Made by a program: the position numbers and the translations under genes
Part shown: piece after piece, positions 40,671 to 63,828 of the stretch
Layout of the letters: every line of letters starts with the position of its first letter
Position numbering within the stretch: the first letter of the stretch is position 1
DNA from: Oscillospiraceae bacterium
Lineage (GTDB): Bacteria; Bacillota; Clostridia; Oscillospirales; Oscillospiraceae
NCBI GenBank assembly: GCA_034927185.1
Contig: JAYFQM010000032.1
Location: 15,436-79,435, forward strand
Length of the DNA: 64,000 bases
Reading direction: 5' to 3'
Notes under the pieces: model-generated
Database searches by the model: none
Seen by the model: only the letters and a program-made list of their open reading frames with translations
Told to the model about the DNA's origin: nothing

Positions 40671-40883
40671 CCCGATCAGGGTATAACAAGCTCAGGTACT
40701 TGTCAATGACAAGCGTCGGTTTGTTTCAAATATTAAGCCGTTATTTGTCGATTCCGTAAATTTTTGTCCGTTAGGTATATTGATTACTTATTGAGTTTGT
40801 GTAATTATTAATGATAAGAAGCTTGCTTTAATCAAAGCAGAATTAACGTGTTGAATTATCTCCGATCTTGAAGGGTGCGGACT

Positions 40884-43004: not shown

Positions 43005-43028
43005 CAGAAAACGGAGAGGATAAACAGC

Positions 43029-44045: not shown

Positions 44046-44234
44046 AAAGACGTTAAGCAGGCTCTTCTGGGTGGAAAAAACATTTTCAGGCAGCTTCTTG
44101 ATTTTCTGATCGACTATGAATCGGCCGACTGGAGTAAAATTGAGGACAGGTATCCGTTTAACGTGATTAGGACGAGCAGATTTATGAAAATATATCTTGA
44201 GTCTCTTGAGTGGGCAAAGAAGCTGAATTTTTAG
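44046..44234 (+). other. same-frame continuation of the preceding EAL-HDOD gene (detached C-terminal 62 codons)
   Basis: Directly after TAA 44043-44045 the same frame reads KDVKQALLGGKNIFRQLLDFLIDYESADWSKIEDRYPFNVIRTSRFMKIYLESLEWAKKLNF*. This aligns with the C-termini of both paralogs (DKIRQSLLGDDGPYSELLKFFESYEHADWSEI... and DELKGGLIGREGVCDDLLRLCTLYEKGRWGKV...). Confidence 0.75.
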
Positions 44235-44264
44235 ATACACCCTTGCTGTGCCCAGCTAAGAATA

Positions 44265-44310
44265 CCCTATATAAACGCCGCATGCTCAGCATGCGGCGTT
44301 TATATAGGGT
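44265..44310. terminator. bidirectional terminator (about 21-bp perfect palindrome)
   Basis: ACCCTATATAAACGCCGCATGC-TCAG-CATGCGGCGTTTATATAGGGT. Lies between convergent genes. Confidence 0.75.
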
Positions 44311-44405
44311 TACTGTGCCTGATTGAAGGCGGGGAACGCATAAAAATGGGAAAAGAGGAGGAGTAACTGAGTAGTAATTGAAAAAATTTTTATGCTTCCG
44401 CGGGA

Positions 44406-46430
44406 TCAAGTTGCAAGCCTGAATTGTCCGACAAGGCTTTTTAACACTTCGGCCTGACTTGAAAGCTCCTCGCTTGCTGCGGCACTTTCCTCGCTTGTTG
44501 CAGAGTTCATCTGAACTACGGAGGAGACCTGCTCGATGCCAATCGAAACTTGATTAATTGCGGCTGCCTGCTCCTGAGCCTGTTCGGATATCTCATCGAT
44601 CAGGACTACAATCTCCGAAGCTTTTTTAGCAACTTCCACAAAACCCGTACTTGTGTTGCTCACAAGCTGAGAACCCTTTTCAACAGCTTCGATGGAGCTT
44701 TCGATGAGGAGAGTGGTGTTCTTAGCAGCCTCCGCGGATTTTTGCGATAAATTACGAACCTCATCGGCAACCACCGCAAAGCCCTTACCGGCAGCTCCGG
44801 CTCTGGCTGCCTCAACAGCGGCATTGAGCGCGAGGATGTTGGTCTGGAAAGCGATATCGTCAATTGTTTTGATGACCTTGCCGATGTTTTTGGAGGTTGA
44901 CGAAATCTTGTCCATCGCCTGGCGGGCGAGTTCCATGTCGTTTACGCTGCTCTGCATAACGGCTTCGGTTGACGTTGTCAGTTCCTTTGCTTTCTCTGCA
45001 TCTTCGGCGTTTCTCGTAACGCGCTGCGATATATCGGCTATTGAAGCCGAAAGCTCCTGAACACTGCTTGCCTGCTCGGTGGCACCCTGAGCCAGAGCCT
45101 GAGAACCGGAGCTTACCTGCGAGGCTCCAGCCGATACCTGTTCGGAAACCTGAAGTATGTCCAGGAAAGAGTCGGAAAGGCCGCTCTTCAAGGTTTTCAG
45201 GGAGGTGAGGATATTTGCGTAATCTCCTATATACAAGCCAGTATCGTGTGAATTGACGTCAAAGTTTCCTCCGGAGAACTCCGACAGGATAAAGTCTATA
45301 TCTTTAATTATCGATCCTGTTTGGCTCAAAGTATTTAGAATGGAACTTTTTAGAACGACAAATTCGGAAGAGGCAGCCGCAAGGTCGGGAAGCGGCGATA
45401 AAACATCGCCTGCTGCCAGCTGTGATAGCCTTTTAATGTATACTTTCAACGGATCAACGACTCTGTTTGCAATATAGATACAGCCGAATACGCCCACGAG
45501 AATGATTATGACAAGCAAAGCTGCGGAGCCATAGATGGAGGTCATCACTCCTCTGGTAAAGTCCGATACGGGCGCGGTCAGACAAATGATCCAACCATCG
45601 CTGCCTTCAACAGTGGAAGCGCAGAGAAATTTCCTGACGCCCTGGTACTGGTACTGATTAAAGGAGACCTCTCCGGATAGTGCGCTATTGAACGAATCCA
45701 CCAAAGGCTGCAAAGCCGGCTCGCTTTCCGCCAATTCAAAAATGTTTTTTCCATCAGAAATATAAGCTGTGTCAATATAATCTACAAAATCTCCGTTTTT
45801 ATCAAGTATGTATGCGTAACCGTTTTTGCTTATGTTCATACTGGATATGGCCTGACCGATCAGAGTCTGAGGCACGGTAAAGCAAACTACTCCCGTAACC
45901 GAGGTCCCTTTCATACCATTTGTCCAAATCGGCGTGGAGAGAGTCATGGCGAGCTCGCCCGATTTTTCATCAAGGTATGGGGAGGTAATGTATGTTTCGC
46001 CATCCTTGGCGGGAGAGAAGTACTCAGCCGAGGAGTAGTCTTTGCCGGTCTTTATTTCTTTGCCGCTGGCAGATAAAATGTATCCGTCAAGTAAGTCATA
46101 TTCTTTGACCTTTTTTGTTACAAGAGCTGCCTTTTCCGCATCGGTAGCCTCTGAACTGTACATAACGCTGTTGGACGCGATTTCTTCCATTAGTACCGAT
46201 ATTCTGCCTAGCTTATTGGAAACGGCGTCACCCGCGATTCCGGCGGCGGAAATCATCGAATCCTCAAGACTGGAAATGGTGCTGCGATAGCCCATATATA
46301 CAGTAAAAACCGCCAAAACAACGGAAGCCGTACATATAAAGATAATTATTGGCACAGTTATGGTCATACGCAGGCTATTTTTCCTTTTTTCCTTTAATGC
46401 TGTCAGGCCTTTTAAATCATTTTTTTCCAT
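44406..46430 (-). CDS. methyl-accepting chemotaxis protein with large Cache-type extracellular sensor
   Basis: About 270-aa extracytoplasmic domain between two TM helices (double-Cache size and pattern), HAMP, and signalling tip [36 protein letters not shown]. The ATG at 46430 follows GGGGGG. Confidence 0.92.
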
Positions 46431-46719
46431 TTGGTACCCCCCAATTTTATATAATTTCTCAATAGAGTTTTGCTTGCGGTACACAATCGGATCTCAAGCA
46501 AAGAATACCAAAGCTTTGCGGGCTTTATGCTCGTTTCTGTGTAATCTTTCTTTCACTAGATTTATGCTATGATTTTTGCTTACCACAAGAAGCTAACTAA
46601 GAATGTTTATTAAATATTATTAAGCTCACATGCTCAGAAAAATTGTGTACCCTCCAAAACAAAAGAGAATACCCGGGACTCTAAAAGAACCTCGGGTATA
46701 TTATCGTGTTGCAGGTAAG

Positions 46720-47859
46720 CTAGCTAACGGACGCTTTTGAAGTAAGGGAGGGGACAGGCAGATCGAAGGCACCATCATCAGAAGCGCCCAAAACAGAAGC
46801 TATGGTGACGAAAAGATACCTTACGTCCTCAAGCAGATCAAGCTCATCGCCCTTTTCGCCAAGCTCGGAGTCCTCAAGAAGCCTCACACACGGACGGAAA
46901 ATGTTTTCTGCATGATTTTTCACAACGACGGCGGTCGAGCCGTCGGACAATTTGACCAAGGTTCCCGATGGGTAAATGCTTATCAGATGAGAAAATACCT
47001 TGACAAGCTCGCAGTCAAACTGAGAGTCCGATCCGGCAATTATGTATTCAATTGCGTCTTTGGGATGCCAGGCCTTACGGTAGCTCCTCTGGCTTGTCAG
47101 CGCGTCATAAACATCGGCCACAGCTAGAATACGTCCGAAAAGAGGAATCTGGCTGCCGCTGTATCCGAACGGGTAGCCGCTACCGTCTATCTTTTCGTGG
47201 TGGCTTTGTATTCCAGGCAAAACCTCGGTGGAAAGGTTATAGCACTTGCGCATACGCTCGACGCCCTTTAATGGGTGGGACTTTATGACATCGAATTCCA
47301 AAGGAGTTACGGCGCCGTTTTTGTTTATTATCTCAATGGGAATATCAATTTTTCCGATATCGTGCATAAGCGCGCAAAGAGCAATATCTTCAAGTCTGTT
47401 CCGTGTGATGCCGAGTTCTCCCGCCAACATGGTGCTGAGAATGCCGACATTTAAGCTGTGCGAATACGTATAATTGTCGTAACTCTTGATTTCAATTATA
47501 TCCAGGAGATGCTCTTCGCTGTTCAAAATGTTATCAACGATTTTTCCGGCGATTTTTTTTGTTGATACAACGGATGTACTTGAAATATAAGGCTGGCTGA
47601 AATAGTTGTTATACAGGGTATGAAACTCGTTTGTCATCTCCTGCTTAGTCTGCTGGCTTATCATACTCCTTGGCTCAATGCCTTCAGTTCCCTCCATCTC
47701 AACGTAAATACCGTCGATATCACAGGCGGCGAGCCGTCTTATATAGCGGTCGGTGAGAACTTCTCCATCCTGAAGAAGGGGGAACAAGCCGCTTGGCGCA
47801 GAAACGCTTTTTGCTAGAGTCATTCCCGGCCGTACCCTGGAAAGCGGGATATAAATCAC
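46720..47859 (-). CDS. HD-GYP domain c-di-GMP phosphodiesterase (N-terminal DUF3391-like domain)
   Basis: HDIGKIDIP and HHEKIDGSGYPFG motifs. GTG start. Confidence 0.88.
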   Translation of the reverse strand: MIYIPLSRVRPGMTLAKSVSAPSGLFPLLQDGEVLTDRYIRRLAACDIDGIYVEMEGTEGIEPRSMISQQTKQEMTNEFHTLYNNYFSQPYISSTSVVSTKKIAGKIVDNILNSEEHLLDIIEIKSYDNYTYSHSLNVGILSTMLAGELGITRNRLEDIALCALMHDIGKIDIPIEIINKNGAVTPLEFDVIKSHPLKGVERMRKCYNLSTEVLPGIQSHHEKIDGSGYPFGYSGSQIPLFGRILAVADVYDALTSQRSYRKAWHPKDAIEYIIAGSDSQFDCELVKVFSHLISIYPSGTLVKLSDGSTAVVVKNHAENIFRPCVRLLEDSELGEKGDELDLLEDVRYLFVTIASVLGASDDGAFDLPVPSLTSKASVS

Positions 47860-52858: not shown

Positions 52859-54280
52859 TTGCCGGATTTTTTGAAGGTCACGAAACCGTTGGTAACGCAA
52901 AACCAGAACATCCAGCCAAAGCCTGGTGTCGAAACAAACGGATCGTTTAACATTCAAAGCTCGACGAAAGTCGTTCAGACCCATAACCAAAGCGAATTGC
53001 TCAAGCAGAATAACGGGCTGAAGGACGGTAGCGACGTACCAACTCTCCTGCTGAGCCTCCTCAAGGACCCCACAGTTACCGTATCATATTTAAAAAACAT
53101 CTTCATGCTTGAAGAATTATATAAGCTTCTTCCCGCTAACAACAGGACGGTTACGAAAGATATAGAGGACGTTCTTGAAGCGTTGCTCATAAAACCCGAG
53201 CAGTTGACGGAAGAGATGCGCAGACAGCTGCGCGGCTCAACCGCTTTTTCTGGCGAGCTCTTTGATTTCCTTAGAGAAATAAGCTCGCAGAATAAAGAAA
53301 AGCCCGATGTTCAGGTCGCGATAGCCAGGCTGCTGCGTTCGATTAACAGCATGGGGAACCAGCGTGAAATTCTTGATTCGATAGCTAATAATCTTACATA
53401 CTTGCAGCAGCAGCTGTCCGCCGGCAAAGCTCTATCGGCAAAGCTGAACAATTTGATCGAAGGATTTCTAGCGCAGGATGCGGCGCAGAATTTTTCAGCT
53501 CTTAAATCGGACGCACTCGCCTTGATAAAGAATATTGAGGGCAGTATACTGTTCTCCGCTTCTCTTTCAAAAACAGTATCAATCCTCATATACAATCTTT
53601 CGCGATACAGCGCAAACACCGATTATGCCGCCGAATCGGCATACCGTCTGTCTCAATATCTTACATCGCCCCAGCGTTCGGAGCTCAAAGCGCTGATGCA
53701 GGCTTATATAGATGCGAAAGCCGGGGATGACGGTCCTGCAAAAGCCGGTGCTTCGAATGAGAACGAGTCCCGTGTGATGTCATCGATAATAAGACTCATT
53801 TCTCAGCAGAGGGAAACAGGGACGAACCCTGCCGATATGTTGAAACTGGAAAAAATGCTCTACAGCCTGCTATCATCGCCCTGCAACTTTACTCCCCTGC
53901 TTCATTTCATTCTTCCGCTGCAGTATAATGAAATGAAAGCGTTCGCAGAGCTGTGGATTAATCCGGAAAGCGATGAGAAAGACATGCCGGACAGTGCTTC
54001 CGGCGGAATACATCTTCTCATGGTCATAGATGTCGACGGCGTCGGGCGCTTTGAGGCTGAGTTTTCCGTATACGACTCGACGATCGACTTTTCCCTCTAT
54101 TGCCCGAAAGGCTGCGAACAGGGCTATGAGGAACTCATGAAATCGTTCCCGAAGCTGCTGCACGGAACGCCTTACCATTCCGGCAAGACAGAGGTGTTGA
54201 CCTTTGAAAGCACACGTTCGCTTATGGATGTTTTTAAATCCTTGCCCTACAGGAGGGTCGGAGTAGATGTCAAAATTTGA
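52859..54280 (+). CDS. hypothetical protein, possibly FliK-like hook-length control domain protein (YlqG-like position)
   Basis: 473 aa, Gln/Ser/Leu-rich. The C-terminal block IHLLMVIDVDGVGRFEAEFSVYDSTIDFSLY resembles the Flg_hook fold pattern. Overlaps the downstream FlhB-C-like gene by 14 nt. TTG start after AAGGGGGAAAG. Confidence 0.4.
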   Translation: MPDFLKVTKPLVTQNQNIQPKPGVETNGSFNIQSSTKVVQTHNQSELLKQNNGLKDGSDVPTLLLSLLKDPTVTVSYLKNIFMLEELYKLLPANNRTVTKDIEDVLEALLIKPEQLTEEMRRQLRGSTAFSGELFDFLREISSQNKEKPDVQVAIARLLRSINSMGNQREILDSIANNLTYLQQQLSAGKALSAKLNNLIEGFLAQDAAQNFSALKSDALALIKNIEGSILFSASLSKTVSILIYNLSRYSANTDYAAESAYRLSQYLTSPQRSELKALMQAYIDAKAGDDGPAKAGASNENESRVMSSIIRLISQQRETGTNPADMLKLEKMLYSLLSSPCNFTPLLHFILPLQYNEMKAFAELWINPESDEKDMPDSASGGIHLLMVIDVDGVGRFEAEFSVYDSTIDFSLYCPKGCEQGYEELMKSFPKLLHGTPYHSGKTEVLTFESTRSLMDVFKSLPYRRVGVDVKI

Positions 54281-54554
54281 TAAGAAGGCAGTCGCGCTGA
54301 AATATGACATGGATAACGATTTCGCGCCGATTGTTGTCGCCTCGGGCTACGGCTCGATTGCGGAGAAAATAATCGATATAGCGGAAAAACAGGGTATACC
54401 GGTTTACAGAGACGACAGTGTATCCTCGATGCTGTGTATGCTGGACGTAGGGAAAAGTATCCCGCCTGAGCTTTACGGAATAATCGCGAAGATATATTGC
54501 AGTATTCTTATGACCGCGGAAAAATATAAGGGCATAAATACCGACGGTAATTAG
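54267..54554 (+). CDS. FlhB C-terminal-domain-only protein (EscU/YscU/HrcU family; YlqH-like)
   Basis: KAVALKYDMDNDFAPIVVASGYGSIAEKIIDIAEKQGIPVYRDDSV matches the post-cleavage FlhB/EscU C-terminal domain. 95 aa with no TM region. Confidence 0.8.
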   Translation: MSKFDKKAVALKYDMDNDFAPIVVASGYGSIAEKIIDIAEKQGIPVYRDDSVSSMLCMLDVGKSIPPELYGIIAKIYCSILMTAEKYKGINTDGN

Positions 54555-54585
54555 TTTCCTTAAGAAAACACTTTGCAAGGGGGGG

Positions 54586-55377
54586 ATGAGGGTGAACGAT
54601 CATCTGCAAAAACTCAGGGAACGTGAAATTGAGACAAAGAAGCAAAAGCAGAAGAATATCCGAATGGGCCGTTTGCTGCTCGCCGCCACTCTGCTCGGCC
54701 TTTCAATATTCAGTATTCTGACGATAACCTCTACCATCGAACCCAAAAACTCCGCGCAGGCGAAGGAACACGTTGCGGATGCCACCGCGGGTGACACCGA
54801 GGATGTGGATAAGGATTCATGGGAGCTTGTACTCGTCAACACCAGGAATATGATTCCGGAGGATTTCACTGTGGACCTCAAGCCGTTTGAAAGCACGAGG
54901 GTTGATTACAGGATCGCAGGACATCTGCAGGAAATGATTGACGCGGCGAAGAAGGACGGAATAAGTATAAGCGTTTGTTCAGGGTTCAGAACCGTGTCTG
55001 AACAGGATGCGCTTTATAACGCAAAGTGTGAAAAATATGAAGCGGGCGGCTATAGCGAAGAAGCCAGCAGGATTCTGGCGGGTCAATACATACAGCCTGG
55101 AGGCGCGAGCGAACACCATACCGGACTTGCCGTCGACCTTCTGACCGACGAGACTTCGGAGCTGACTGAGAGCTTTGCGGAAACGCCGGCCTATACATGG
55201 CTGAAGGACAATGCCGCGAAATATGGTTTTATTGAGCGGTATCCTTCGGATAAAAGCGAAATTACAGGGATTTCTTGGGAACCGTGGCATTACCGTTATG
55301 TCGGAAAAAGCAACGCGGAGACCATTACAGAGGACGGGCTCTGTCTTGAGGAATACCTGCTTAGGGAGGATGGCTGA
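54586..55377 (+). CDS. D-alanyl-D-alanine carboxypeptidase family (VanY/M15B) protein
   Basis: N-terminal TM anchor. SGFRTVSEQDALY, SEHHTGLAVDL and WHYRYVG zinc-peptidase motifs. Confidence 0.85.
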   Translation: MRVNDHLQKLREREIETKKQKQKNIRMGRLLLAATLLGLSIFSILTITSTIEPKNSAQAKEHVADATAGDTEDVDKDSWELVLVNTRNMIPEDFTVDLKPFESTRVDYRIAGHLQEMIDAAKKDGISISVCSGFRTVSEQDALYNAKCEKYEAGGYSEEASRILAGQYIQPGGASEHHTGLAVDLLTDETSELTESFAETPAYTWLKDNAAKYGFIERYPSDKSEITGISWEPWHYRYVGKSNAETITEDGLCLEEYLLREDG

Positions 55378-55462: not shown

Positions 55463-56695
55463 ATGGAAACCCATATAGTAAGGCAACCCATTCTTGACCG
55501 CAAGCAAAAGCTCATAGCGTATGAACTTGTGTATTATCAGGATGCCAGCACTCTGTACAACAAGCGGGATACACATGCCGCCAACATAATTGTCACTTTT
55601 TTTGCTGGGGTTGACGCCGGCGGCTTTTTTGAAGGAAAAGATTGTTTTCTGACCTTCACGCCGAATCTTCTGATGAAAAACGTCCCTCAGATTTTCGATG
55701 TGAAAAGGCTTGTGATTCAGATCGAAGAGAACATTCTCATTAATCCGGACGCAAAAGCAATACTCAGCAGATACAAAAGAGACGGTTACCGTATCGCGGT
55801 TCTTGGATTCGACTTTAACAAGCGCTATTTGGATCTTCTCCCGGATATTGATATTATCAAGGTGGATTTTTCCGACCCCCAAAAAGAAAATATCGGGGTT
55901 TTATGCAAGCTGGCCAGGAACTTCGGAAAAAAACTCGCTGCTTACGGGATCAATTCTTCCGAATCAAAGGAGCTTGCACTGTCATACGGCTGTGATTTTC
56001 TTCAGGGTGAAAGCGTTTCCGAAATGGTTACCACCAAGGTCCATAAAATGAACTATCTCCAGTCGAACTTCTTCAGGCTTATGGGGGCGATAACAAAAGA
56101 AGCTCCGGAGTTCGATGAAATTGCGAAAATAATTTCCATGGACGTTTCCCTGTCGTTCTCTCTGCTGAAAATGGTCAACTCCGCTTATTTTGCGCTGTCC
56201 AATAAAATCAGCAGCGTAAAGCAGGCATTGACGATTCTCGGATTGGGACAGCTCAAGCAGTGGATCTACCTGCTTAGCTTTTCGGATGACGGCGGAATAA
56301 CCGATCAGCTTATAAAGCAGTCGTTTCTCCGTGCTGTTTTTTGCCAGGAGATATCCCAGTATATCGACGGCTTCCCCATTTCAAAATCGGAATCTTATTT
56401 GCTTGGAATGTTCTCAACACTCGGCATTCTGCTCGAGGTTCCGATTGCGGATGCGGTCGAAGAGCTCCCTCTTTCAGACGAACTGAAAGGCGGTCTTATC
56501 GGCAGGGAAGGAGTGTGCGATGACCTGCTTAGGCTCTGTACCTTATATGAAAAAGGGAGATGGGGTAAAGTGGCATCAATAATAGAAAAACTGAGGCTGC
56601 CGGAAGATGTTGTTAAAGTAAAATACCTGGAAGCCATCGAATATGTAAACAATATCTGGTCGGAGCTGTCAATCCCGTCTGCCGGCAGAGAATGA
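55463..56695 (+). CDS. EAL-like - HDOD protein (PdeH/YuxH-sized, 410 aa; catalytic residues partly lost)
   Basis: IVRQPILDRKQKLIAYELVYY, LTFT (Asn lost), IQIEEN, AVLGFDF (DD lost), IKVD, AAYGINS (ExxE lost), LQGES. HDOD: DVSLSFSLLKMVNSAYFALSNKISSVKQALTILGLGQLKQW. Confidence 0.85.
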   Translation: METHIVRQPILDRKQKLIAYELVYYQDASTLYNKRDTHAANIIVTFFAGVDAGGFFEGKDCFLTFTPNLLMKNVPQIFDVKRLVIQIEENILINPDAKAILSRYKRDGYRIAVLGFDFNKRYLDLLPDIDIIKVDFSDPQKENIGVLCKLARNFGKKLAAYGINSSESKELALSYGCDFLQGESVSEMVTTKVHKMNYLQSNFFRLMGAITKEAPEFDEIAKIISMDVSLSFSLLKMVNSAYFALSNKISSVKQALTILGLGQLKQWIYLLSFSDDGGITDQLIKQSFLRAVFCQEISQYIDGFPISKSESYLLGMFSTLGILLEVPIADAVEELPLSDELKGGLIGREGVCDDLLRLCTLYEKGRWGKVASIIEKLRLPEDVVKVKYLEAIEYVNNIWSELSIPSAGRE

Positions 56696-56747: not shown

Positions 56748-57440
56748 TTGAAAATGGATCTTAATAGTGTTCTTGACTGTATGTGTGAAATCAAGACGAT
56801 GGACAACGAGTTTCTAGCCATTGGCAGAATCAGTGCCGTCATGAACGACGAAAAATCAATCGAAATTGTCTCCTGCGACGGAGGCAGTCTTCCGAGTATG
56901 CGGTATGAGACAAAAGTTAAAATCAGCATAGTCGGCAGCAAAAGCGGATTTCTGGGTCTGGAAGGCTATGTTTATATTGCGCATAGCAGCTTCTGGAGAT
57001 TATATGATGTAAGCAGTCTTGGCGAAAACGAGAGACGCGGTTACTTCAGGATTAAGAACAGCTCACACGCGGAGGTTGAAGAGATTGCAGAGCAGGGACA
57101 GATAAAAAACGACGCAAAGGAAGCGGCGGACAGCGCGAATGTGAAGTATCCCTGTATAGTAACAAGCGTGAGTATTTCGGGATTGCTTCTTGCGATTGAT
57201 GATGAAAGCTGCGATTACCGCATTGGCGCCACGCTTCAGGTTAACTCTTTTACCATAGGAGAAAGCAGCCAGGAATTCACCTTAAGATGCGTTGTAAAAA
57301 GAATTGACCATCACGAAAGGCTCGGATTACTTTTAGGATGCGAGTTTACCGGCCTTAGCGACAGAGAAATACAAAGTCTCTGTCAGGCAATTTTTACACA
57401 GCAGCGGCTTGAAATACATAGAAAAAAAGGGCTTCATTAG
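56748..57440 (+). CDS. PilZ domain protein (YcgR/MotI-DgrA-like architecture)
   Basis: RRGYFR (RxxxR) followed about 40 aa later by SVSISGLLL, which is (D/N)xSxxG with Ser in the first position. About 100-aa N-terminal beta-rich domain. The ATG at 56754 is an alternative start. Confidence 0.75.
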   Translation: MKMDLNSVLDCMCEIKTMDNEFLAIGRISAVMNDEKSIEIVSCDGGSLPSMRYETKVKISIVGSKSGFLGLEGYVYIAHSSFWRLYDVSSLGENERRGYFRIKNSSHAEVEEIAEQGQIKNDAKEAADSANVKYPCIVTSVSISGLLLAIDDESCDYRIGATLQVNSFTIGESSQEFTLRCVVKRIDHHERLGLLLGCEFTGLSDREIQSLCQAIFTQQRLEIHRKKGLH

Positions 57441-57460: not shown

Positions 57461-57496
57461 AAAAAACTGCTTAGTTCACTTGCTAAGCAGTTTTTC
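57461..57496. terminator. bidirectional intrinsic terminator
   Basis: AAAAAACTGCTTAG-TTCACTTG-CTAAGCAGTTTTTC. Lies between convergent genes. Confidence 0.75.
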
Positions 57497-57511
57497 GGCA
57501 GTAAAATCCAA

Positions 57512-57964
57512 TTAATGGTGCGGGTGCGAACGGATTTGTATCGCAGCCTTGATAAGCGCATCCATTATGGTTTTATTCGAAATCTCCATTTCGACCTGTT
57601 CGATTTTTGACGATTGTACGACCGCATAGCGCGGAGGAAGAATATTAAGGGCATAAGCGCAAATATCACATCGACAACGGTCGCAACTGCATACATTGAA
57701 CCTCTGGATGACCGCGTCGACGTTCTTCAAAACAAGGCTCTCCATAACATTTATCGTTGAAATCGTTTCTGGTTCATTATAGCTTGGACTACGGGCGAAA
57801 ATTTTATCCCGTAAGGCAGAGAGTGAATCAGAGCTTGCTTCGTCCTCGGCTTCCTCAACCGCTTTGTCCGAAACAAGGTCGGAGCTGAAAGGATTGCTGT
57901 TCAGAGCGGGCATGATTTTCGAAAACATCAAATCCTTATCAAGCTCTTTTTTTGATTTTGCCAT
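57512..57964 (-). CDS. ComFB-domain protein with ~70-aa N-terminal extension
   Basis: The C-terminal part NVMESLVLKNVDAVIQRFNVCSCDRCRCDICAYALNILPPRY matches the ComFB (late competence development protein) Cys-cluster pattern. The N-terminus MAKSKKELDKD...EEAEDEASSDS looks disordered. Starts 3 nt after the ParA-like stop. Confidence 0.7.
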   Translation of the reverse strand: MAKSKKELDKDLMFSKIMPALNSNPFSSDLVSDKAVEEAEDEASSDSLSALRDKIFARSPSYNEPETISTINVMESLVLKNVDAVIQRFNVCSCDRCRCDICAYALNILPPRYAVVQSSKIEQVEMEISNKTIMDALIKAAIQIRSHPHH

Positions 57965-57967
57965 TTT

Positions 57968-58735
57968 CTAAATTAAACCCCTTTCAAAGAGCTCTTTGAC
58001 CAAAGCCATATAGTCCTTAACGGCGTTATTATTCGGAGCGTAATCTATTATATCCTCCTGCAGAGTTGTCATGGCCTTACTGATGACATTGCTGTGTCTG
58101 ATAACTGTGTCCAGCAGCGGTATGTTCAGGTGGGTTGCCAGCATCTGAGCGGTTTCCTTTGTAGTGCGGCTGAGTGCCTCGCGCGGGTAGTAGCGCAGCA
58201 AAAACATTCCGGCTATGGTAAGGTCGGGATTAAAAGCCCTTTTAATGCGGAATATTGTTTCATGTACCTGAATAATTCCATGCAGGCTGTACCCGTCCGA
58301 CAGGCCGGGAATAAGAACGATATCCGAGGCTATTATAACATTTGAGGAGAGAAGACCCAACTCCGGAGGGGAATCTATCAGAATATAGTCATACATCGGA
58401 AGAACCGTTTTGAGGCTTTCCTTCAGCATATGCTCGCTTCCTGGCCCTGTGAACTCGCGTTCAACATTGCCAAGCAGCGCGTCGGCGGGAATGATGTCGA
58501 CAACATTTGAATTCTGTATCGCATAGCGCGTTTTAACTTTGTGCTTGAGAACGTCGTATATTGTTGGGTGCTCTCTCGTGTCGGCGTTCATACTAAACGA
58601 AAGATAGCCCTGAGGGTCGAAGTCAACACAAAGAACACTGTAGCCCAAATGTTTCAGACAGGCGGCAATAGCGTTTGTTGACGCGGTTTTTCCTACACCG
58701 CCCTTTTGATTGATTAAAGAAATTACCTTTGCCAT
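57968..58735 (-). CDS. ParA/MinD/Soj-family deviant Walker-A ATPase (orphan)
   Basis: MAKVISLINQKGGVGKTAST deviant Walker A with the signature Lys. VDFDPQG, and LIDSPP Walker B-like. About 255 aa. No ParB or parS is visible nearby. Confidence 0.88.
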   Translation of the reverse strand: MAKVISLINQKGGVGKTASTNAIAACLKHLGYSVLCVDFDPQGYLSFSMNADTREHPTIYDVLKHKVKTRYAIQNSNVVDIIPADALLGNVEREFTGPGSEHMLKESLKTVLPMYDYILIDSPPELGLLSSNVIIASDIVLIPGLSDGYSLHGIIQVHETIFRIKRAFNPDLTIAGMFLLRYYPREALSRTTKETAQMLATHLNIPLLDTVIRHSNVISKAMTTLQEDIIDYAPNNNAVKDYMALVKELFERGLI

Positions 58736-59087
58736 TGCTATCATCACTCCTCGTTTTTTGATATTATCATAATTTATTCTATAATAAAATAGCCTATTGC
58801 ATTTTTTGAGCGGAATGACACGGTAAATTTCGTTTTTTCCTATTGACTTCCGCTATCCGGCGGCAGTCGTAAAAAGCCGGGCATCAGGTGCCGGCGGGTT
58901 ATACTTAACAAAATATTAAAAATATACAAAAATCATAGCATGTTATGGTTATCTGCTTTAATTTTTCCATTTTAGATGTATAAATAGATTGAGGCAGGAA
59001 TATTAAAGCCTGATTTTTGAAGAAATGCTGTTTTAAGGACACGTGAATATTTTGAGTATTCATTAATAATATTGGAGGCGCTGATAC

Positions 59088-59408
59088 ATGGAAATAAAAC
59101 CCATTCAAAACTATATTATGACGCAGGCTTCGGCAAATTCGACGAACACCAAGAAGCCGGCAGAAGAAGCCGGCGAGGCGGCCGCCGATACCCGAGGAAC
59201 CGATAAGATCGACATAAGCTCAGAGGCCAGCTTTAAAGCCGATTTGGGCAAATATGCAAAAATCTATTCCGCGAAGGGGACCGAGAAAGCGTCCGCAGAG
59301 CGTATCACAGCGCTCAAGCAGCAGTATCAAGGAGATACCTGCCCGATTTCCGGGAGCGATATTGCAGCGAAGATAATATCGGGAATACTTGGACCCGCAG
59401 TCAAATAA
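59088..59408 (+). CDS. flgM: anti-sigma-28 factor FlgM
   Basis: 106 aa. DKIDISSEA and C-terminal ERITALKQQYQGDTCPISGSDIAAKII follow the FlgM pattern. Sits directly upstream of flgN-flgK. GGAGG RBS. Confidence 0.75.
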   Translation: MEIKPIQNYIMTQASANSTNTKKPAEEAGEAAADTRGTDKIDISSEASFKADLGKYAKIYSAKGTEKASAERITALKQQYQGDTCPISGSDIAAKIISGILGPAVK

Positions 59409-59425
59409 TAACCGGAGATTATATT

Positions 59426-59908
59426 ATGGATTCTCAGTATAGCGAGTACATAAGCTTTTTAACAAAATACAGGGATGAGCTGTCCTCTTATCTTGAGAGT
59501 GAAGGCGAAAAACGCAGATCTCTGCTTAGCGGAGACCTCGAAAGGCTTGAGAAAATGCTTAATGTTCAGCAGGCGCAGGCCATGAAGTTCCGGACCATGG
59601 AAACCAAAAGAGCCGCGCTTCAGTCAAAGCTGGGACTGACAGGCGGGAAAGCTGCTGAGCTTCTTGAGAAGATCGGGGATACGGATGACAAAAAGAGTAT
59701 CCAAGCACTTTTTTCGGAAATGAACGATATTGCGGTTTCGATTCGTGAGCAGAACAGGCAGTCTCTCGGCTTGGCGGAATCAAAGCTCAAGATTTACGAT
59801 TCAATCAATCTTGGCGGAGACACAGACTCGCCGAATAAACTCTATGGACCGGAAAACAACCGCCGGACGGCATTTTCTGCGGGAGATGCGTTTGAAGAGA
59901 CAATATAG
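59426..59908 (+). CDS. flgN: FlgN-family flagellar export chaperone
   Basis: 160-aa helical protein between flgM and flgK. LLSGDLERLEKMLNVQQAQAMKFRTMETKR is typical of FlgN. Confidence 0.65.
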   Translation: MDSQYSEYISFLTKYRDELSSYLESEGEKRRSLLSGDLERLEKMLNVQQAQAMKFRTMETKRAALQSKLGLTGGKAAELLEKIGDTDDKKSIQALFSEMNDIAVSIREQNRQSLGLAESKLKIYDSINLGGDTDSPNKLYGPENNRRTAFSAGDAFEETI

Positions 59909-59914
59909 GAGGGC

Positions 59915-61438
59915 TTGCAGTTGAGATCAACTTTCATAGGAATGGAGACGGCCAGATCCGCTATTGTCGTAAACCAGATAGCACAGGATGTTGTCGCAAA
60001 TAATATAGCAAACCTCAACACGGAAGGATACACGAGGCAGCGCGTTGAGAGAGCCGCAACCGCCGTTTCCACTTACTCCAACCGCGTTCGAGCAAGCTTT
60101 TCATCAGGTAACGGTACAGGCGTTACCGCGCTTGGAGTTTCTCAGGTCAGAGACTCGTTTCTGGATAAATGCTTCAGAGACGAAAACTCCGTAAGCAGTT
60201 GTTACTCGCAGACTGCGGACATCCTTAACGACATACTCAGCGTTTTTCCGGACGGGGCGGACATAACCAATGATTCCGGTCTTATCGGAGGACTCGAATC
60301 GTTATATACAAACCTCAATACGTTTATTCAGTCGCCCACTTCGCAGTCCGAGGCGAACCTGGTAAAATCATCTTTTACTAATTTGGCCCAGATTCTGAAC
60401 CAGCTTGACAGCGGACTCACAACGGTTTTCAAACGCCAGAGTGAAGACTTGCAGACAACGGTCGACAGGACTAACGACCTGATGGAGCAAATCGCAAGCC
60501 TGAATAAAAACATCGCAGCGGACGCGACCATTATGGCTAACACGGGAAGCAAGTACAGCCAGCCAAACGAGCTTCTCGACGAAAGAAACACTCTTTTGGA
60601 CGAGCTGTCGAATTACGGAGACATTAATGTCACTGAGAACTCCGACGGCACCGTAAGCGTTGAGATGGGCGGCAAGCTTGTTGTGGACAAGGGAGAATAT
60701 GACTCCTTGTCGATGACGGTAGACAAAAACAATTATGTTAATGTTTCCTGGAGGACATCCGGTGACAGCGTTTCACTCTCGTCCGGTTCGATTAGGGCCT
60801 ATGTGGACGTTATAAACGGAAGAGGCAGCAATGTCCAGAACAATAAAGAGACCTCTGTGCAGGGGATCCCTTATTACCGCGACAGGATTAATCAGTTCGC
60901 CAGCGCTCTGGCGGACGTTGCCAACTCCACTATTCCGGATTCGGTGGACTCCTCGGGGAACGTCATATCCTATAAGACCCTGCTCGGCGGATACGATTCC
61001 AACGGCAACGCGGTGAAAACCATAACCGCTGGCAATATCTCCGTAAGTAAAGAATGGACAGATGAAGGAGCGGCCTACATCATTTACAGTGACAGCGAGA
61101 ATGTCGAAGACTATGCTCAGCTCCTCTCAAACAAAATATTTGAAGACAGCTACACGTTTAGTTCCTACGGAGAAACATATACGGGCACTTTTTCAAACTA
61201 CACGATTGACATGCTCGGAAAGATCGGTACAGATGTGAGCTTTAATGAGGGTAGGAGCGAGGCAACCGCCACTATTGCGAATGACTATCTTTCAAGCAGG
61301 GACTCGATTTCAGGAGTTCAGCAGGATGAAGAAACGGCAAATATGCTGATATATCAGAGAAGCTATCAGGCAGCCTCACGTCTTATGACAGTTATGAACG
61401 ATATGCTGGATACGCTGATTAACGATACGTACCGCTGA
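59915..61438 (+). CDS. flgK: flagellar hook-associated protein 1 (FlgK)
   Basis: N-terminus RSTFIGMETARSAI..NQIAQDVVANNIANLNTEGYTRQR, C-terminus SGVQQDEETANMLIYQRSYQAASRLM. The second TTG at 59921 is the likelier start. Confidence 0.92.
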   Translation: MQLRSTFIGMETARSAIVVNQIAQDVVANNIANLNTEGYTRQRVERAATAVSTYSNRVRASFSSGNGTGVTALGVSQVRDSFLDKCFRDENSVSSCYSQTADILNDILSVFPDGADITNDSGLIGGLESLYTNLNTFIQSPTSQSEANLVKSSFTNLAQILNQLDSGLTTVFKRQSEDLQTTVDRTNDLMEQIASLNKNIAADATIMANTGSKYSQPNELLDERNTLLDELSNYGDINVTENSDGTVSVEMGGKLVVDKGEYDSLSMTVDKNNYVNVSWRTSGDSVSLSSGSIRAYVDVINGRGSNVQNNKETSVQGIPYYRDRINQFASALADVANSTIPDSVDSSGNVISYKTLLGGYDSNGNAVKTITAGNISVSKEWTDEGAAYIIYSDSENVEDYAQLLSNKIFEDSYTFSSYGETYTGTFSNYTIDMLGKIGTDVSFNEGRSEATATIANDYLSSRDSISGVQQDEETANMLIYQRSYQAASRLMTVMNDMLDTLINDTYR

Positions 61439-61465
61439 TCCTGTAAGCGGAAGGAGCGATTTTAA

Positions 61466-62482
61466 ATGAGAATTTCAGACAGACAGACAACGCGTAATTT
61501 TTTAAGCTATGTGGATAAAGCAAAGACGGCTTATGCAGAAACGAATGAGCGCGTAGCATCCGGGAATAGGTTTACGCGCATATCAGACGATGTGTCCGCC
61601 GCAACGAAAGCTCTCAGGGTAAGAACCGATCAGTTCAAGGCAGAAGAGCACTATGGCAACGTGTGTGCGGTCACAGAGCAGCTCACATCGACGGAGGATG
61701 CCTTGACCTCAATTAACGAAATACTGATAAAAGTGCATACGAAAGTGCTCAGCGCCTTGAACGGAACGAGCGGTGAATCGGGACAGGAGACGCTGGCCGG
61801 CGAGATCGAAAACCTGCGCGACGAGCTCCTCCAATATGCGAACACAACATACAATGATGCTTTTGTTCTTGGCGGTACCGGCTCGAAGACCGCGCCATTT
61901 TCCGAGGATGCTTCCGGAAATCTTCTATATAACGGCATAGACGTAAATTTGATCGAAAAAGACGCCGACGGATATTACTACATGGACGGGGCAACCAGAA
62001 AGAACATTCCTATGGACGGCGATACATATGTCGACGTCGGGCTTGGAATATCCATGACAGGCACCAACGTCAAATCTGACTCAGCAATTAAAACGTCATA
62101 TTCCGGACTTGACATACTCGGCTTCGGCAAGGATGCCGACGGCAGCACAAACAATATTTTCAATATTTTGACACAGATAGCTGAGAACCTGAAGGATTAC
62201 GACAAGGATACTGTCGGCTCATATGACGATAAGCTTGTTTCCTTTAAAGACACTTTTACAGGCTATCTTACGGATGTCGGAGCAAAAACAAGCTATCTTG
62301 ACGCGATAAAAAGCAGGCTTGACACGAGTATTGACACGTATCAAAGTCAGATCAGCCGGCTTGTCGGAGTCGATGACGCCGAGGAGGCGACAAATCAAAG
62401 CATGAATGACTACGTTCTGAAAGCGGTTCTTTCTATGGGCGCCGATATTATCCCGGTCTCGCTGATGGATTTTCTGAATTAA
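61466..62482 (+). CDS. flgL: flagellar hook-associated protein 3 (FlgL)
   Basis: MRISDRQT...VASGNRFTRISDDVSAATKAL flagellin-N-like start and a flagellin-C-like end. Confidence 0.88.
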   Translation: MRISDRQTTRNFLSYVDKAKTAYAETNERVASGNRFTRISDDVSAATKALRVRTDQFKAEEHYGNVCAVTEQLTSTEDALTSINEILIKVHTKVLSALNGTSGESGQETLAGEIENLRDELLQYANTTYNDAFVLGGTGSKTAPFSEDASGNLLYNGIDVNLIEKDADGYYYMDGATRKNIPMDGDTYVDVGLGISMTGTNVKSDSAIKTSYSGLDILGFGKDADGSTNNIFNILTQIAENLKDYDKDTVGSYDDKLVSFKDTFTGYLTDVGAKTSYLDAIKSRLDTSIDTYQSQISRLVGVDDAEEATNQSMNDYVLKAVLSMGADIIPVSLMDFLN

Positions 62483-62516
62483 TGCTGTTGCAGTATTGCC
62501 GAAAGGAGGGATAAAA

Positions 62517-63113
62517 GTGCAGTTGCTGAAGATAACAACAACGCCGATGAAGTATGAGTTCGAAGTCGAGAATCCCAAATTGAAATATCAGCAGGACCTT
62601 ATTCCTTCAGGCGATATTTCAACCACCGATTCACAACTCAGCATCGACACGAAAAATGCCGAAATAAAAATTGATACATACCAGGCTAGAAAATCGCTTG
62701 GCCTTTTAAATATTGATGACAGCATCAGGCAGTACTCTGAAAAAGGCAAGGAGCACATTACAAAGCTGATTCAGGAATATGTGCAAATTGGCAAACAGCT
62801 TGGAGATATACAGGACGGCGTCGATATTGGCGATGTGATCAGGCAGAAAATTATTGAAACACCAATCCTTTATACCACTACTTTGCCAAGTGCGGAAGCG
62901 GACATTTCATGCGAACCCGCAGAAGCTGACATTAGCTTTCAGCCGGGGGATGTCAGCGTGGATTGGCAGATAAAGGATACCTCATATGTCTTCCAGCCGG
63001 GAAGCTTCCATATGAAAATAGTAGAATATCCAAAAATCGATATTGAATATCTTGGTGGTCCGATGTATGTGCCTCCGAGCGCGAACCCAAACTATAATGA
63101 AACGGCGGAATAA
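62517..63113 (+). CDS. hypothetical protein in the YviE position (between flgL and fliW)
   Basis: AAGGAGGG lies 6 nt before the GTG at 62517 (VQLLKITTTPMKYEFE...). Same position and similar size as B. subtilis yviE. No function known. Confidence 0.55.
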   Translation: MQLLKITTTPMKYEFEVENPKLKYQQDLIPSGDISTTDSQLSIDTKNAEIKIDTYQARKSLGLLNIDDSIRQYSEKGKEHITKLIQEYVQIGKQLGDIQDGVDIGDVIRQKIIETPILYTTTLPSAEADISCEPAEADISFQPGDVSVDWQIKDTSYVFQPGSFHMKIVEYPKIDIEYLGGPMYVPPSANPNYNETAE

Positions 63114-63157
63114 TGAGAAGACGGCGTAGCTGTCGTGTCAAAAGCAGGGTGATTTAA

Positions 63158-63592
63158 ATGATCATAGAAACAAGAGATTTCGGCAAGACGGAAGTATCTG
63201 AGGAAAACATTTATCATTTCACGCAGCCTCTGTTCGGGTTTGAGGATTACACCGATTTTGCCGTCCTTAACGACAGAGAACTTGGAGAAGACATAGTCTG
63301 GCTGCAATCGCTGCAGAATTCCGGCCTTTGCTTCATTATGATGGACCCGGGAAAGCTGGCTCCGGATTATTCTCCGGTTCTGCCTGCTGGCTCGGATGAG
63401 CTTCTGGGCGAGGGGGACTTGTTTTGCTGGGCCGTCGCGGTCATACCGCGCAATTTCAAGGATTCGACGGTTAACCTGAAAAGCCCAGTGTTCCTGAATC
63501 CGGCTAATCATCTTGCGGCTCAGATAATGCTTGAAGGCGAGTACCCCGTTCGCTATCCTCTGTCGAAGGAGGGGCAAAGCTCATGCTTGTAA
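63158..63592 (+). CDS. fliW: flagellar assembly factor FliW
   Basis: IETRDFGKTEVSEENIYHFTQPLFGFEDYTDFAVL and FCWAVAVIP are typical of FliW. Overlaps csrA. Confidence 0.92.
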   Translation: MIIETRDFGKTEVSEENIYHFTQPLFGFEDYTDFAVLNDRELGEDIVWLQSLQNSGLCFIMMDPGKLAPDYSPVLPAGSDELLGEGDLFCWAVAVIPRNFKDSTVNLKSPVFLNPANHLAAQIMLEGEYPVRYPLSKEGQSSCL

Positions 63593-63828
63593 TATCCCGA
63601 AAACAAGATGAATCGATTATTATCGAACCGCGGCAGGGCGAACCGATCGAAATCAAGATTATCTCGATAGACAACCAGGTGAGAATCGGGATTAAAGCGC
63701 CGAACGACTGCAAGATTTGGCGCAATGAGCTTTATAAAACGGTTGAGCTGAATAGAAGCGCCGCAGAGGTTTCTTCCGTGAGCAATTTGAGGAACTTCAT
63801 TGCAAATAATGATAAGGTGAATGACTGA
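63583..63828 (+). CDS. csrA: carbon storage regulator CsrA (flagellin translation regulator)
   Basis: MLVISRKQDESIII...IKIISIDNQVRIGIKAPNDCKIWRNELY. Confidence 0.93.
   Translation: MLVISRKQDESIIIEPRQGEPIEIKIISIDNQVRIGIKAPNDCKIWRNELYKTVELNRSAAEVSSVSNLRNFIANNDKVND

Follow-up and report, generated by a model that had tools for sequence, protein, structure and literature searches.

A Soj-like ATPase encoded with a peptide-bearing ComFB protein beside flagellar genes: a candidate two-protein module of Oscillospirales

The ParA/MinD (A/D) ATPases are bound by partner proteins whose N-terminus, charged and disordered, makes the contact and whose genes usually adjoin that of the ATPase and lie near those for the cargo; ParA-like members bind the nucleoid by C-terminal basic residues and MinD-like members attach by an amphipathic helix. 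Many of these ATPases are regarded as 'orphans' since their partner proteins are too diverse to be recognised (PMC10241942). For Myxococcus xanthus the ParB motif is L11-x-R13-x-L15-x-x-L18-I19 (general form L-x-R-x-L-x-x-L-I; PMC12462528), its pocket on ParA consists of V116, L150, L152, L155, L187 and L192, and R13 (often a Lys) sits on Y81/E82 of ParA. ComFB proteins were recognised between 2023 and 2025 as a widespread family of receptors for cyclic di-GMP (c-di-GMP) and cyclic di-AMP (c-di-AMP), and in Bacillus subtilis, where comFB lies upstream of flgM, c-di-GMP-bound ComFB inhibits flagellar function, not flagellar abundance, through a target that has not been identified (PMC12265714, PMC12448109). 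Here we describe a locus in which the two families meet. It lies in a 64,000-nucleotide (nt) stretch of contig JAYFQM010000032.1 of an Oscillospiraceae bacterium (positions 15,436–79,435, called the window below) and encodes a Soj-like ATPase followed directly by a ComFB-family protein that carries a conserved N-terminal peptide.

The two genes, their junction and their terminator are placed as follows (positions are those of the window, aa = amino acids):

57968–58735, minus strand: ParA/Soj-type ATPase with a deviant Walker A motif, 255 aa plus TAG stop (Pfam AAA_31, CbiA)
57512–57964, minus strand: ComFB-family protein with an N-terminal extension, 150 aa plus stop (Pfam PF10719)
57977–57985, minus strand: Shine-Dalgarno sequence for comFB, GAAAGGGGT, inside the last codons (E-R-G) of the ATPase gene
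57461–57497, unstranded: intrinsic terminator, a hairpin that also serves the convergent PilZ gene (folding energy −22.5 kcal/mol, z = −4.53)

The TAG stop of the ATPase gene (57968–57970) and the ATG of comFB (57964) are separated by 3 nt (AAA), which is the spacing to a 150-aa downstream protein given in the original prediction, made from the letters of the window, and both open reading frames (ORFs) are in frame. At the other end of the ATPase ORF the program-made list gave a GTG start at 58747; we place the start at the ATG at 58735, which is preceded by GAGGAG, because all homologs are 254–255 aa long and begin MAKxISL. In 59 of 60 related pairs the two genes are −1 to +6 nt apart (−1 nt in 24, 3 nt in 21 and 0–6 nt in 14), the lone 30-nt gap probably being a mis-called start, and a GAAAGGGG Shine-Dalgarno sequence is kept at the same place in nearly all 60 junctions. 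The junction is predicted to be translationally coupled, and this arrangement is conserved. None of 200 shuffled sequences was as stable as the hairpin that follows comFB, and because of this strong terminator the ATPase gene and comFB can be regarded as a self-contained bicistronic operon. The in-frame junction of the window (TAG AAA ATG, a stop plus one codon, at 57962–57970 on the minus strand) is found at 21 of the 60 related junctions and is probably incidental, since the other junction types (−1, 0, 1 nt etc.) are out of frame.

Conservation of the pairing was assessed by scanning one genome per GTDB species, which gave 64 ComFB loci, 62 of them with upstream sequence; nearly all are from Oscillospirales, among them Scatolibacter rhodanostii and Acidaminobacterium chupaoyuni LBM23126, both cultured. 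At all 62 assessable loci the ATPase gene lies immediately upstream of comFB on the same strand. Members of class A, the window's own type, are 56–95% identical to the window protein for the ATPase and 33–86% for ComFB, so that the ATPase is the more conserved of the two. The genes downstream of the pair vary by lineage (Tex, ABC transporters, FapA-PilZ, hydrolases), which argues that the adjacency of the ATPase gene and comFB is not residual synteny. Early look-ups of ComFB homologs with differing downstream genes had found the ATPase upstream in five of five cases (on contigs that partly overlap with the GTDB set), and reciprocal look-ups anchored on ATPase homologs found ComFB directly downstream in three of three. 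As to the size of the family, full-length homologs of the ComFB protein fall into more than 120 clusters, 1,947 ComFB relatives came out of an exhaustive profile search against 1.84 billion representatives, and the whole profile, N-terminal module included, was matched by about 100 of the best 150 representatives (50% identity clusters).

A further 22 metagenome loci were picked for their 'short' ComFB representatives, as controls lacking the peptide. Most of these turned out to be mis-called starts, the true ORFs bearing both the peptide and an upstream ATPase gene, and the loci were sorted as follows:

Class B (L083–L091 and L094): peptide FDKEYIFNLIMP; ATPase gene upstream in 10 of 10
Class A2 (L092 and L093): peptide KKDIDRELMYKKILP; ATPase gene upstream in 2 of 2
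Class C, L082-like (L097–L103): peptide THKTDAVMKLLTGK; ATPase gene upstream in 7 of 7
Peptide-less ComFB (L095/L096): no peptide; no ATPase gene within ±4 kb
L104: weak peptide match at a contig edge; no ATPase gene found, not assessable

The ATPase gene is thus immediately upstream at all 19 peptide-bearing metagenome loci of classes B, A2 and C. The peptide-less ComFB (Pfam score 84.6 bits) lies instead between genes for a MalK-type ABC ATPase and a PucR-type regulator. Identity to the window ATPase, 56–95% in class A, is 42–47% in class B and 37–39% in class C and, as judged from these values, peptide class tracks ATPase clade, three classes with three clades. Variants with linkers of up to about 400 residues or with two tandem ComFB domains follow the same rule, in that every one with a readable context has a gene for a ParA-like ATPase of 227–262 aa directly upstream; the variant ATPases compared (L079, L081 and L082) are 37–49% identical to that of the window. 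The tandem variant (L079 4530–6619 and L080 2327–4416) is a protein of 441 aa with the same peptide, a linker of about 250 aa and its own ATPase, and is flanked by RNase J and dapA-asd-dpaB-dpaA-dapB, a non-flagellar context. We conclude that the pairing is not due to chance but is strict, deep and reciprocal; the random adjacency that the original prediction had set out to check is found neither in the species survey nor in the metagenome loci.

One protein, P0333 (473 aa), carries the ATPase, the peptide (KKSLNREQMYQKIMP), a PQ-rich linker and ComFB in a single chain. It was seen once, on a 4.9-kb ENA contig, and could reflect either a true fusion or an indel at the 1-nt overlap of stop and start, and for these reasons it carries little weight; read-through of an in-frame stop such as that of the window would give a fusion of the same kind. 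Gene callers often start comFB at an internal Met and miss GTG or TTG starts that overlap the ATPase stop (TAGTG), as at L078 (6759–6792) and in P0330 and its loci L083–L091. Because of these internal-Met starts public annotations under-report the N-terminal extension, an annotation problem that hides the peptide.

The features of the ComFB protein are, from the N-terminus:

57887–57964, minus strand: conserved N-terminal peptide, residues 1–26, MAKSKKELDKDLMFSKIMPALNSNPF, the proposed ATPase-docking motif (from conservation)
57833–57886, minus strand: acidic, low-complexity, disordered tether, residues 27–44 (predicted local distance difference test, pLDDT, below 50 for residues 29–44)
57788–57832, minus strand: second short helix, residues 45–59, SDSLSALRDKIFARS (helix 45–56 in the AlphaFold2 model, pLDDT 54–61)
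57515–57763, minus strand: ComFB globular domain, residues 68–150, with the Cys cluster C92/C94/C97 and a C-terminal HPxH (pLDDT 92–98)

The N-terminal peptide is the best-conserved segment of the protein across 60 species, in which it reads M-A-K-[ST]-K-[KR]-E-L-D-K-D-[LM]-M-F-x-K-I-[ML]-P-[AS]-[LI]-x-x-N-P-F. Within its core, DKDxMFxKIMP, F14, K16 and P19 are present in all 60 and D9 and K10 in 59; K3, K5 and K6 are basic. A simple motif search found the peptide in 99 of 147 representative clusters. The original prediction had singled out a Lys-rich tip (MAKSKKELDKD) followed by an acidic stretch, and both are there, the conserved element being, at 26 residues, longer than the tip. In the AlphaFold2 model, which used a 62-sequence alignment, residues 5–22 of the peptide form a helix (pLDDT 55–68), and the tether that follows ranges from about 10 to about 400 residues among homologs. 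The second helix, in which L51 and F56 are nearly invariant in class A, is found in 18 of the 147 representatives and is mainly a feature of classes A and B.

Residues 71–148 match Pfam ComFB (PF10719) at 65.8 bits (cutoff 25), and the NCBIfam model for Bacillus ComFB scores 28.7 bits against a cutoff of 120. Foldseek gave significant matches only to B. subtilis ComFB (4WAI; TM 0.75–0.78, root-mean-square deviation about 2 Å) and to the c-di-GMP complex of CdgR (8HJA), and so the ComFB domain with its Cys cluster had been correctly recognised from the sequence. The Zn cysteines of B. subtilis ComFB (C25, C27 and C30) have their counterparts in C92, C94 and C97, and its dimer and ligand residues N4, E7, D33, N40 and Y46 in N72, E75, D100, N107 and Y113, all of them invariant. 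We propose that the partner protein is a dimeric, Zn-stabilised receptor domain. It resembles B. subtilis ComFB and CdgR/SyComFB in fold, Zn-Cys triad and dimer and D33/N40 residues, and the B. subtilis gene also adjoins flgM. B. subtilis ComFB differs in having no N-terminal extension and in being flanked by comFA and comFC, not by such an ATPase, and the equivalents of its K/R41 and Y55 are not conserved in ComFB of the window type.

The ATPase scores 149 bits against Pfam AAA_31 (cutoff 27) and 61 bits against CbiA (cutoff 25.4), with a weak match to CBP_BcsQ (37 bits), and its deviant Walker A motif is NQKGGVGKT, in agreement with the deviant-Walker-A ATPase of about 255 aa that had been predicted. 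K11, K16, D38, D40, Q42 and D121 are invariant in all ATPases compared (60 of class A and about 18 of other classes), and the protein is, by its residues, catalytically complete and Soj-like. Its best sequence relatives in the PDB are M. xanthus ParA (8RAY, 102 bits) and the Soj proteins of Thermus thermophilus and Helicobacter pylori; archaeal MinD (1ION) scores 46 bits against the 102 of ParA, and no FlhG structure is among the PDB matches at E ≤ 1e-10. It ends in a Soj-like last helix (...VKELFERGLI) at residue 255, with no C-terminal amphipathic membrane-targeting extension. An FlhG/MinD identity was rejected on the missing membrane helix and the low similarity, and no FlhF was found among the scanned ORFs of the window. 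The protein scores 93.5 bits against the NCBIfam ParA_partition equivalog, whose cutoff is 180, and no NCBIfam equivalog accepts either it or the ComFB protein; the best match among plasmid ParAs is 39% identical, and public sources name the homologs only 'ParA family protein', 'chromosome partitioning protein' or 'AAA family ATPase'. A chromosomal or plasmid Soj identity was rejected as well (no ParB among the scanned ORFs, a score below the ParA_partition cutoff, at most 39% identity to plasmid ParAs and absence of the ComFB protein from plasmids and phages); a Soj with a ParB in the same operon context, a possibility that the original prediction had left standing, is not what the locus encodes. 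The position of the Motif 2 catalytic Asn (N64 of M. xanthus ParA) is occupied by Y44 (codon 58604–58606, minus strand); Tyr is found here in 49 of the 60 class A ATPases, and classes A2, B and C have mostly Asn, two members of class B having Asp. ATP hydrolysis in class A may have different kinetics.

Compared with the ParB motif, F14-x-K16-x-M18-x-x-L21 of the ComFB peptide matches four of the five key positions. On the ATPase, the equivalents of M. xanthus ParA Y81/E82 are Y60, which is invariant, and D61, present in 55 of 60 class A members, and the equivalents of L150, L152 and L192 are L126 (invariant), L128 and F168 (both conserved), so that the partner-docking side of the ATPase looks ParA-like. 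The partnership between peptide and ATPase is strengthened because the peptide is the best-conserved part of ComFB, is tethered, resembles the ParB motif, always occurs with an upstream ATPase gene and belongs to a class that tracks the ATPase clade. The idea that the ComFB protein acts as partner of the ATPase through its N-terminus was already part of the original prediction, and it is this part that has gained most, the interpretation as a whole being partly supported. We think it likely, with good confidence, that the two proteins form a cognate ATPase–partner pair through the ComFB N-terminal peptide.

From the domain identities, the fold, the operon and gene pairing, the conservation and disorder of the peptide, its co-occurrence with the ATPase and the association with flagellar operons we infer the following mechanism. 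On the ATP-bound ATPase dimer the peptide would fold as a helix at the site used by the ParB peptide on ParA, with F14, M18 and L21 entering the Walker-B-proximal pocket (L126, L128, F168) and Lys16 contacting the Y60/D61 patch, and would thereby recruit the ATPase, stimulate it, or both. The role of the ComFB domain would be to bring in the signal, a cyclic dinucleotide and most likely c-di-GMP, to connect the module with its target, or both. The flagellar apparatus is the most likely target, and there the site or number of assemblies or, as for B. subtilis ComFB, motor activity would be affected. The output might be surface patterning or a nucleotide-dependent partner switch. A dedicated two-protein A/D ATPase module, made up of a Soj-like ATPase and a ComFB partner with a tethered peptide, is the reading towards which we lean, with restrained confidence.

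The genes on either side of the pair are:

59088–63828, plus strand: late flagellar operon, divergent from the pair, with flgM-like, flgN, flgK, flgL, DUF6470 (yviE-like), fliW and csrA (Pfam for flgM-like to fliW)
58736–59087, unstranded: intergenic region that separates the divergent ATPase and flgM genes
56748–57440, convergent with the pair: PilZ gene (Pfam)
55463–56695, convergent with the pair: EAL(partial)-HDOD gene (Pfam)

These identities and orientations are as originally read from the sequence. The FlgM-like protein reaches just 21.5 bits with Pfam, under the cutoff, and fits FlgM in size and position; csrA was assigned from its ORF translation and from tblastn matches at the CsrA positions of other loci, not from Pfam. 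Late flagellar genes were scored within ±7 kb at the 41 species loci of at least 12 kb (long loci) and were found at 39 of them. At L072 they lie downstream on the same strand. Of the cultured carriers, A. chupaoyuni LBM23126 has the pair next to flgM, and S. rhodanostii has no late flagellar gene within 7 kb of it. In class B the pair is again divergent from flgN-flgK-flgL; in class C it is directly upstream of flgB-flgC-fliE-fliF; and L081, L082 and L105 adjoin fliD-fliS, L082 being flanked also by cheV-cheD-cheC-flgG-fliA-flhA. That different classes adjoin different flagellar operons argues for a functional tie to the flagellum, and the flagellum or motility is, in our estimate, probably the target of the module. 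CheA is encoded within 7 kb at 20 of the 41 long loci. Chemoreceptor arrays had been considered as cargo too, and nothing specific points to them, the conserved association being with flagellar structural operons.

Two side observations concern these flagellar loci. In L082 (13127–15008, minus strand) a gene for a sigma factor of the fliA/sigD type comes about 50 nt after flhA, and neither flhF nor flhG intervenes. In B. subtilis and Clostridioides difficile flhF and flhG lie between flhA and the fliA/sigD-type gene. The order in L082 raises the question whether there are carriers of the pair without FlhF/FlhG. In L105 (10463–12569) and L106 (7700–9806) a bactofilin gene and then an EAL-HDOD gene lie a few genes downstream of the pair, and the order recurs in L081, where an unannotated 252-aa protein takes the place of bactofilin.

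With regard to the ligand, D33A and N40A each strongly reduce c-di-GMP binding by B. subtilis ComFB and K41A reduces it about threefold, and of its c-di-GMP contacts (D33, N40, K/R41, A36/L37/V47 and Y55) the equivalents of D33, N40, A36 and V47 are present in the window protein. Binding of c-di-GMP or c-di-AMP is plausible from these residues and not assured, and the ligand may be neither; that a cyclic dinucleotide is the input of the module we rate as an even call. The EAL-HDOD and PilZ genes, which the original prediction had read as neighbouring c-di-GMP effectors, are near the pair at 13 of the 41 long loci; being facultative in this way they are not core features, and they support the c-di-GMP theme from outside the core. 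More specifically, the pair might be a c-di-GMP-gated post-translational regulator of the place, number or activity of flagella, in which the ligand alters the engagement of the ATPase dimer by the peptides and which may replace FlhF/FlhG where these are absent between flhA and fliA (L082), a version that we find rather doubtful.

Several observations weigh against a ComFB-docked ATPase acting on flagella under c-di-GMP control and are taken together here. At the proposed docking site, the pocket positions V116, L155 and L187 of M. xanthus ParA correspond to R93, A/S131 and R163, so that three of six are non-hydrophobic, and the counterparts of the ParB-pocket positions show no enrichment of residues that discriminate the classes (3 of 8 against a background of 26%, p = 0.34). 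The central Lys is missing from class B peptides. In all five class B ATPases position 61 is His, not Asp (the five form one clade, and L079 and three class A members are exceptions), and this change alongside a Lys-less peptide is a suggestive hint of docking at that patch. The monomer model of P0333 only extends the C-terminal helix of the ATPase through the peptide (pLDDT 54–82) and is uninformative on docking. The non-specific DNA-binding Arg (R218 of B. subtilis Soj, R238 of M. xanthus ParA, where R238E abolishes DNA binding) is replaced by Ile, Leu or Val in all 60 class A ATPases and is never basic elsewhere (I/L/V/A across all classes). As for other basic positions, the equivalent of B. 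subtilis Soj R189, R185, is present in 60 of 60 class A members and kept in most others (K or N in class C, W in P0333), and that of H. pylori Soj K247 is K or R in 36 of 60. Because the DNA-binding Arg is absent and there is no C-terminal membrane helix, classical surface patterning has no identified matrix here, and the positioning role of the original prediction is not supported. For the ligand, the contact K/R41 aligns to I108, which is variable and non-basic, and Y55 to the variable Q123, so that binding may be weak, different or absent; the c-di-GMP-binding ComFB that had been proposed keeps its D33/N40-type contacts and loses these two. Finally, L040 and L069 have no nearby late flagellar genes, L079/L080, where the pair is flanked by RNase J and dap/dpa genes, has no flagellar gene in a range of 7 kb, and the peptide-less negative control is a single lineage (L095/L096).

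Given the missing matrix-binding features, a regulatory partner switch, not positioning, has to be taken as a serious alternative, in which the ATPase dimer and ComFB would sequester and release each other or a third regulator (a transcription factor, or FlgM/sigma-28) and so set flagellar expression by c-di-GMP and ATP state. The pair is divergent from flgM in most loci; FleQ-FleN and the FlhG partner switch (FlhG-FlrA/FliM) provide precedents for a c-di-GMP sensor and A/D ATPase acting on transcription, and cyanobacterial ComFB/CdgR is described as working via transcription factors. Neither protein, however, has a DNA-binding domain, the intergenic region holds no conserved operator or repeat, the adjacency to flgM is replaced in other classes by that to other flagellar structural operons and B. 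subtilis ComFB affects the function of flagella, so that, serious as it is, we regard such a switch as unlikely. The negative pocket-position test and the three diverging pocket positions can also be taken to mean that the ComFB peptide docks elsewhere, on a flagellar switch, export or stator part, the ATPase being co-expressed for another reason and touching the ComFB domain or not; FliM and FliY N-terminal peptides bind FlhG, so that peptides of this kind are common in flagellar systems, and the second conserved helix (residues 45–56) has no assigned role. Set against this, ComFB proteins with the peptide always have the upstream ATPase (62/62, 19/19 and the variants L079–L082 and L105) and the sole ComFB without it does not, peptide class tracks ATPase clade, and A/D partners as a rule bind through their N-terminus, which makes docking at another site quite improbable in our view.

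A DNA partition cassette of type Ib, chromosomal or in an integrated element, would have the same architecture, since ParF-ParG and delta-omega likewise consist of a small Walker ATPase followed by a small dimeric centromere-binding protein with a flexible basic N-terminal tail (here ComFB), and by sequence the ATPase is closest to Soj/ParA and Firmicute plasmid ParAs. On the other hand, searches of 72,556 plasmids and 50,697 phages gave no match to the ComFB protein, no plasmid ParA exceeds 39% identity and the surroundings of the genes hold no repeat array, which makes a partition cassette very unlikely; the essential DNA-binding Arg is missing too, the flagellar-adjacent chromosomal position is stable across an order-level clade, and the ComFB fold is that of a nucleotide receptor, not of a known DNA binder. 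Two unrelated genes that merely share an operon would make even less sense of an adjacency that persists at 37–95% ATPase identity and through changing flanks, with its translational coupling kept and one instance of fusion, and we give this next to no credence.

In comparison with described systems, the dedicated ATPase–ComFB module has one close counterpart in ParA-ParB (8RAY), with which it would share a Soj-type ATPase, a partner encoded immediately downstream that is a dimer with a disordered N-terminal peptide, hydrophobic residues grouped around one Lys or Arg, and the Y81/E82 and L150/L152/L192 equivalents on the ATPase. It differs in its partner, a ComFB nucleotide receptor instead of a CTPase/helix-turn-helix ParB, in having no parS and a locus that is not at the origin, in Ile, Leu or Val in place of the non-specific DNA-binding Arg, and in its flagellar genomic context. 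FleQ-FleN/FlhG likewise ties an A/D ATPase to flagella, and the FleN partner FleQ binds c-di-GMP; here the ATPase is Soj-like, lacks the C-terminal amphipathic helix and has no flhF neighbour, and the c-di-GMP sensor would be a small ComFB protein and not an AAA+ enhancer-binding protein. In BcsQ-BcsR-BcsE of E. coli-type cellulose secretion, too, an A/D (SIMIBI) ATPase and its dedicated c-di-GMP sensor together control a machine of the envelope, with a different sensor fold (GIL/degenerate REC-GGDEF versus ComFB), machine (cellulose synthase versus flagellum) and phylum. ParC-ParP and PpfA-TlpT are orphan ParA-like ATPases with a dedicated downstream partner in a motility-related locus; the ComFB partner, unlike theirs, has no CheW or methyl-accepting chemotaxis protein (MCP) domain, and the conserved neighbours are flagellar structural genes, not che genes. 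Partnership of a c-di-GMP sensor with an A/D ATPase therefore has precedents in FleQ-FleN and BcsE-BcsQ, whereas the ATPase–ComFB pairing appears to be undescribed, both as an ATPase subfamily and as a class of partner: the ComFB family paper makes no mention of ParA, Soj, FlhG or partition, and a full-text search for ComFB/CdgR together with ParA/MinD gave incidental co-mentions only and no prior description in the searchable literature.

Through this operon a candidate direct effector becomes available for a large ComFB subfamily, of about 100 clusters at 50% identity, and a ParA subfamily without annotation acquires a candidate for its partner and, in the flagellum, one for its cargo. DKDxMFxKIMP is a short, well-defined peptide open to mutation, synthesis and testing, and the pair, which adjoins flagellar genes in many Clostridia of gut and environment, opens a way to test how ComFB proteins control motility. 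If the module is real, a second-messenger receptor joins the list of A/D ATPase adaptors and a new layer of motility control is added in Oscillospirales, an abundant clade of gut and digester; if it is moreover gated by c-di-GMP, it would be the first ParA-type ATPase with a second-messenger receptor as activating partner, and the effector route of ComFB would have been identified.

Turning to the remainder of the window, Pfam scans of ORFs selected throughout the 64 kb, each of 120 aa or more, a size range that leaves MinE-sized ORFs unscanned, found no ParB, MinC, MinD or FlhF, and the ATPase–flgM intergenic region has no repeat array beyond chance-level short repeats and nothing parS-like; the absence of ParB, parS, MinC and FlhF noted in the original prediction holds to this extent. 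Conserved operators or repeats are likewise missing from the intergenic region. Sigma-70-like matches there are sporadic, unremarkable and not conserved. A sigma-28-like match, TAAA-N14-GCAGATAA, lies at 58949–58974 on the minus strand, about 200 nt upstream of the ATPase start, and is likely due to chance since similar matches occur in only 4 of 35 related intergenic regions. Farther off, the window encodes CheA, CheW, CheR and CheB, two MCPs, an HD-GYP protein, a GGDEF-EAL-HDOD protein and a second EAL-HDOD protein, and 0–37 kb is otherwise made up of genes for sugar and glycine metabolism. Genes connected with c-di-GMP are abundant at 40875–47859 (the GGDEF-EAL-HDOD, EAL-HDOD and HD-GYP proteins), and together with that at 55463–56695 there are three HDOD-containing EAL paralogs within 16 kb. 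Between these and the EAL(partial)-HDOD gene lies a trio of plus-strand genes (52859–55377) for an uncharacterised 473-aa protein, a 95-aa protein that consists of the FlhB C-terminal domain only (Bac_export_2 profile positions 262–332) and a VanY-type peptidase. The same trio is directly upstream of the pair in L075, and among the 41 long loci its 473-aa protein is encoded within 7 kb at 18 and the FlhB C-terminal-domain protein at 11.

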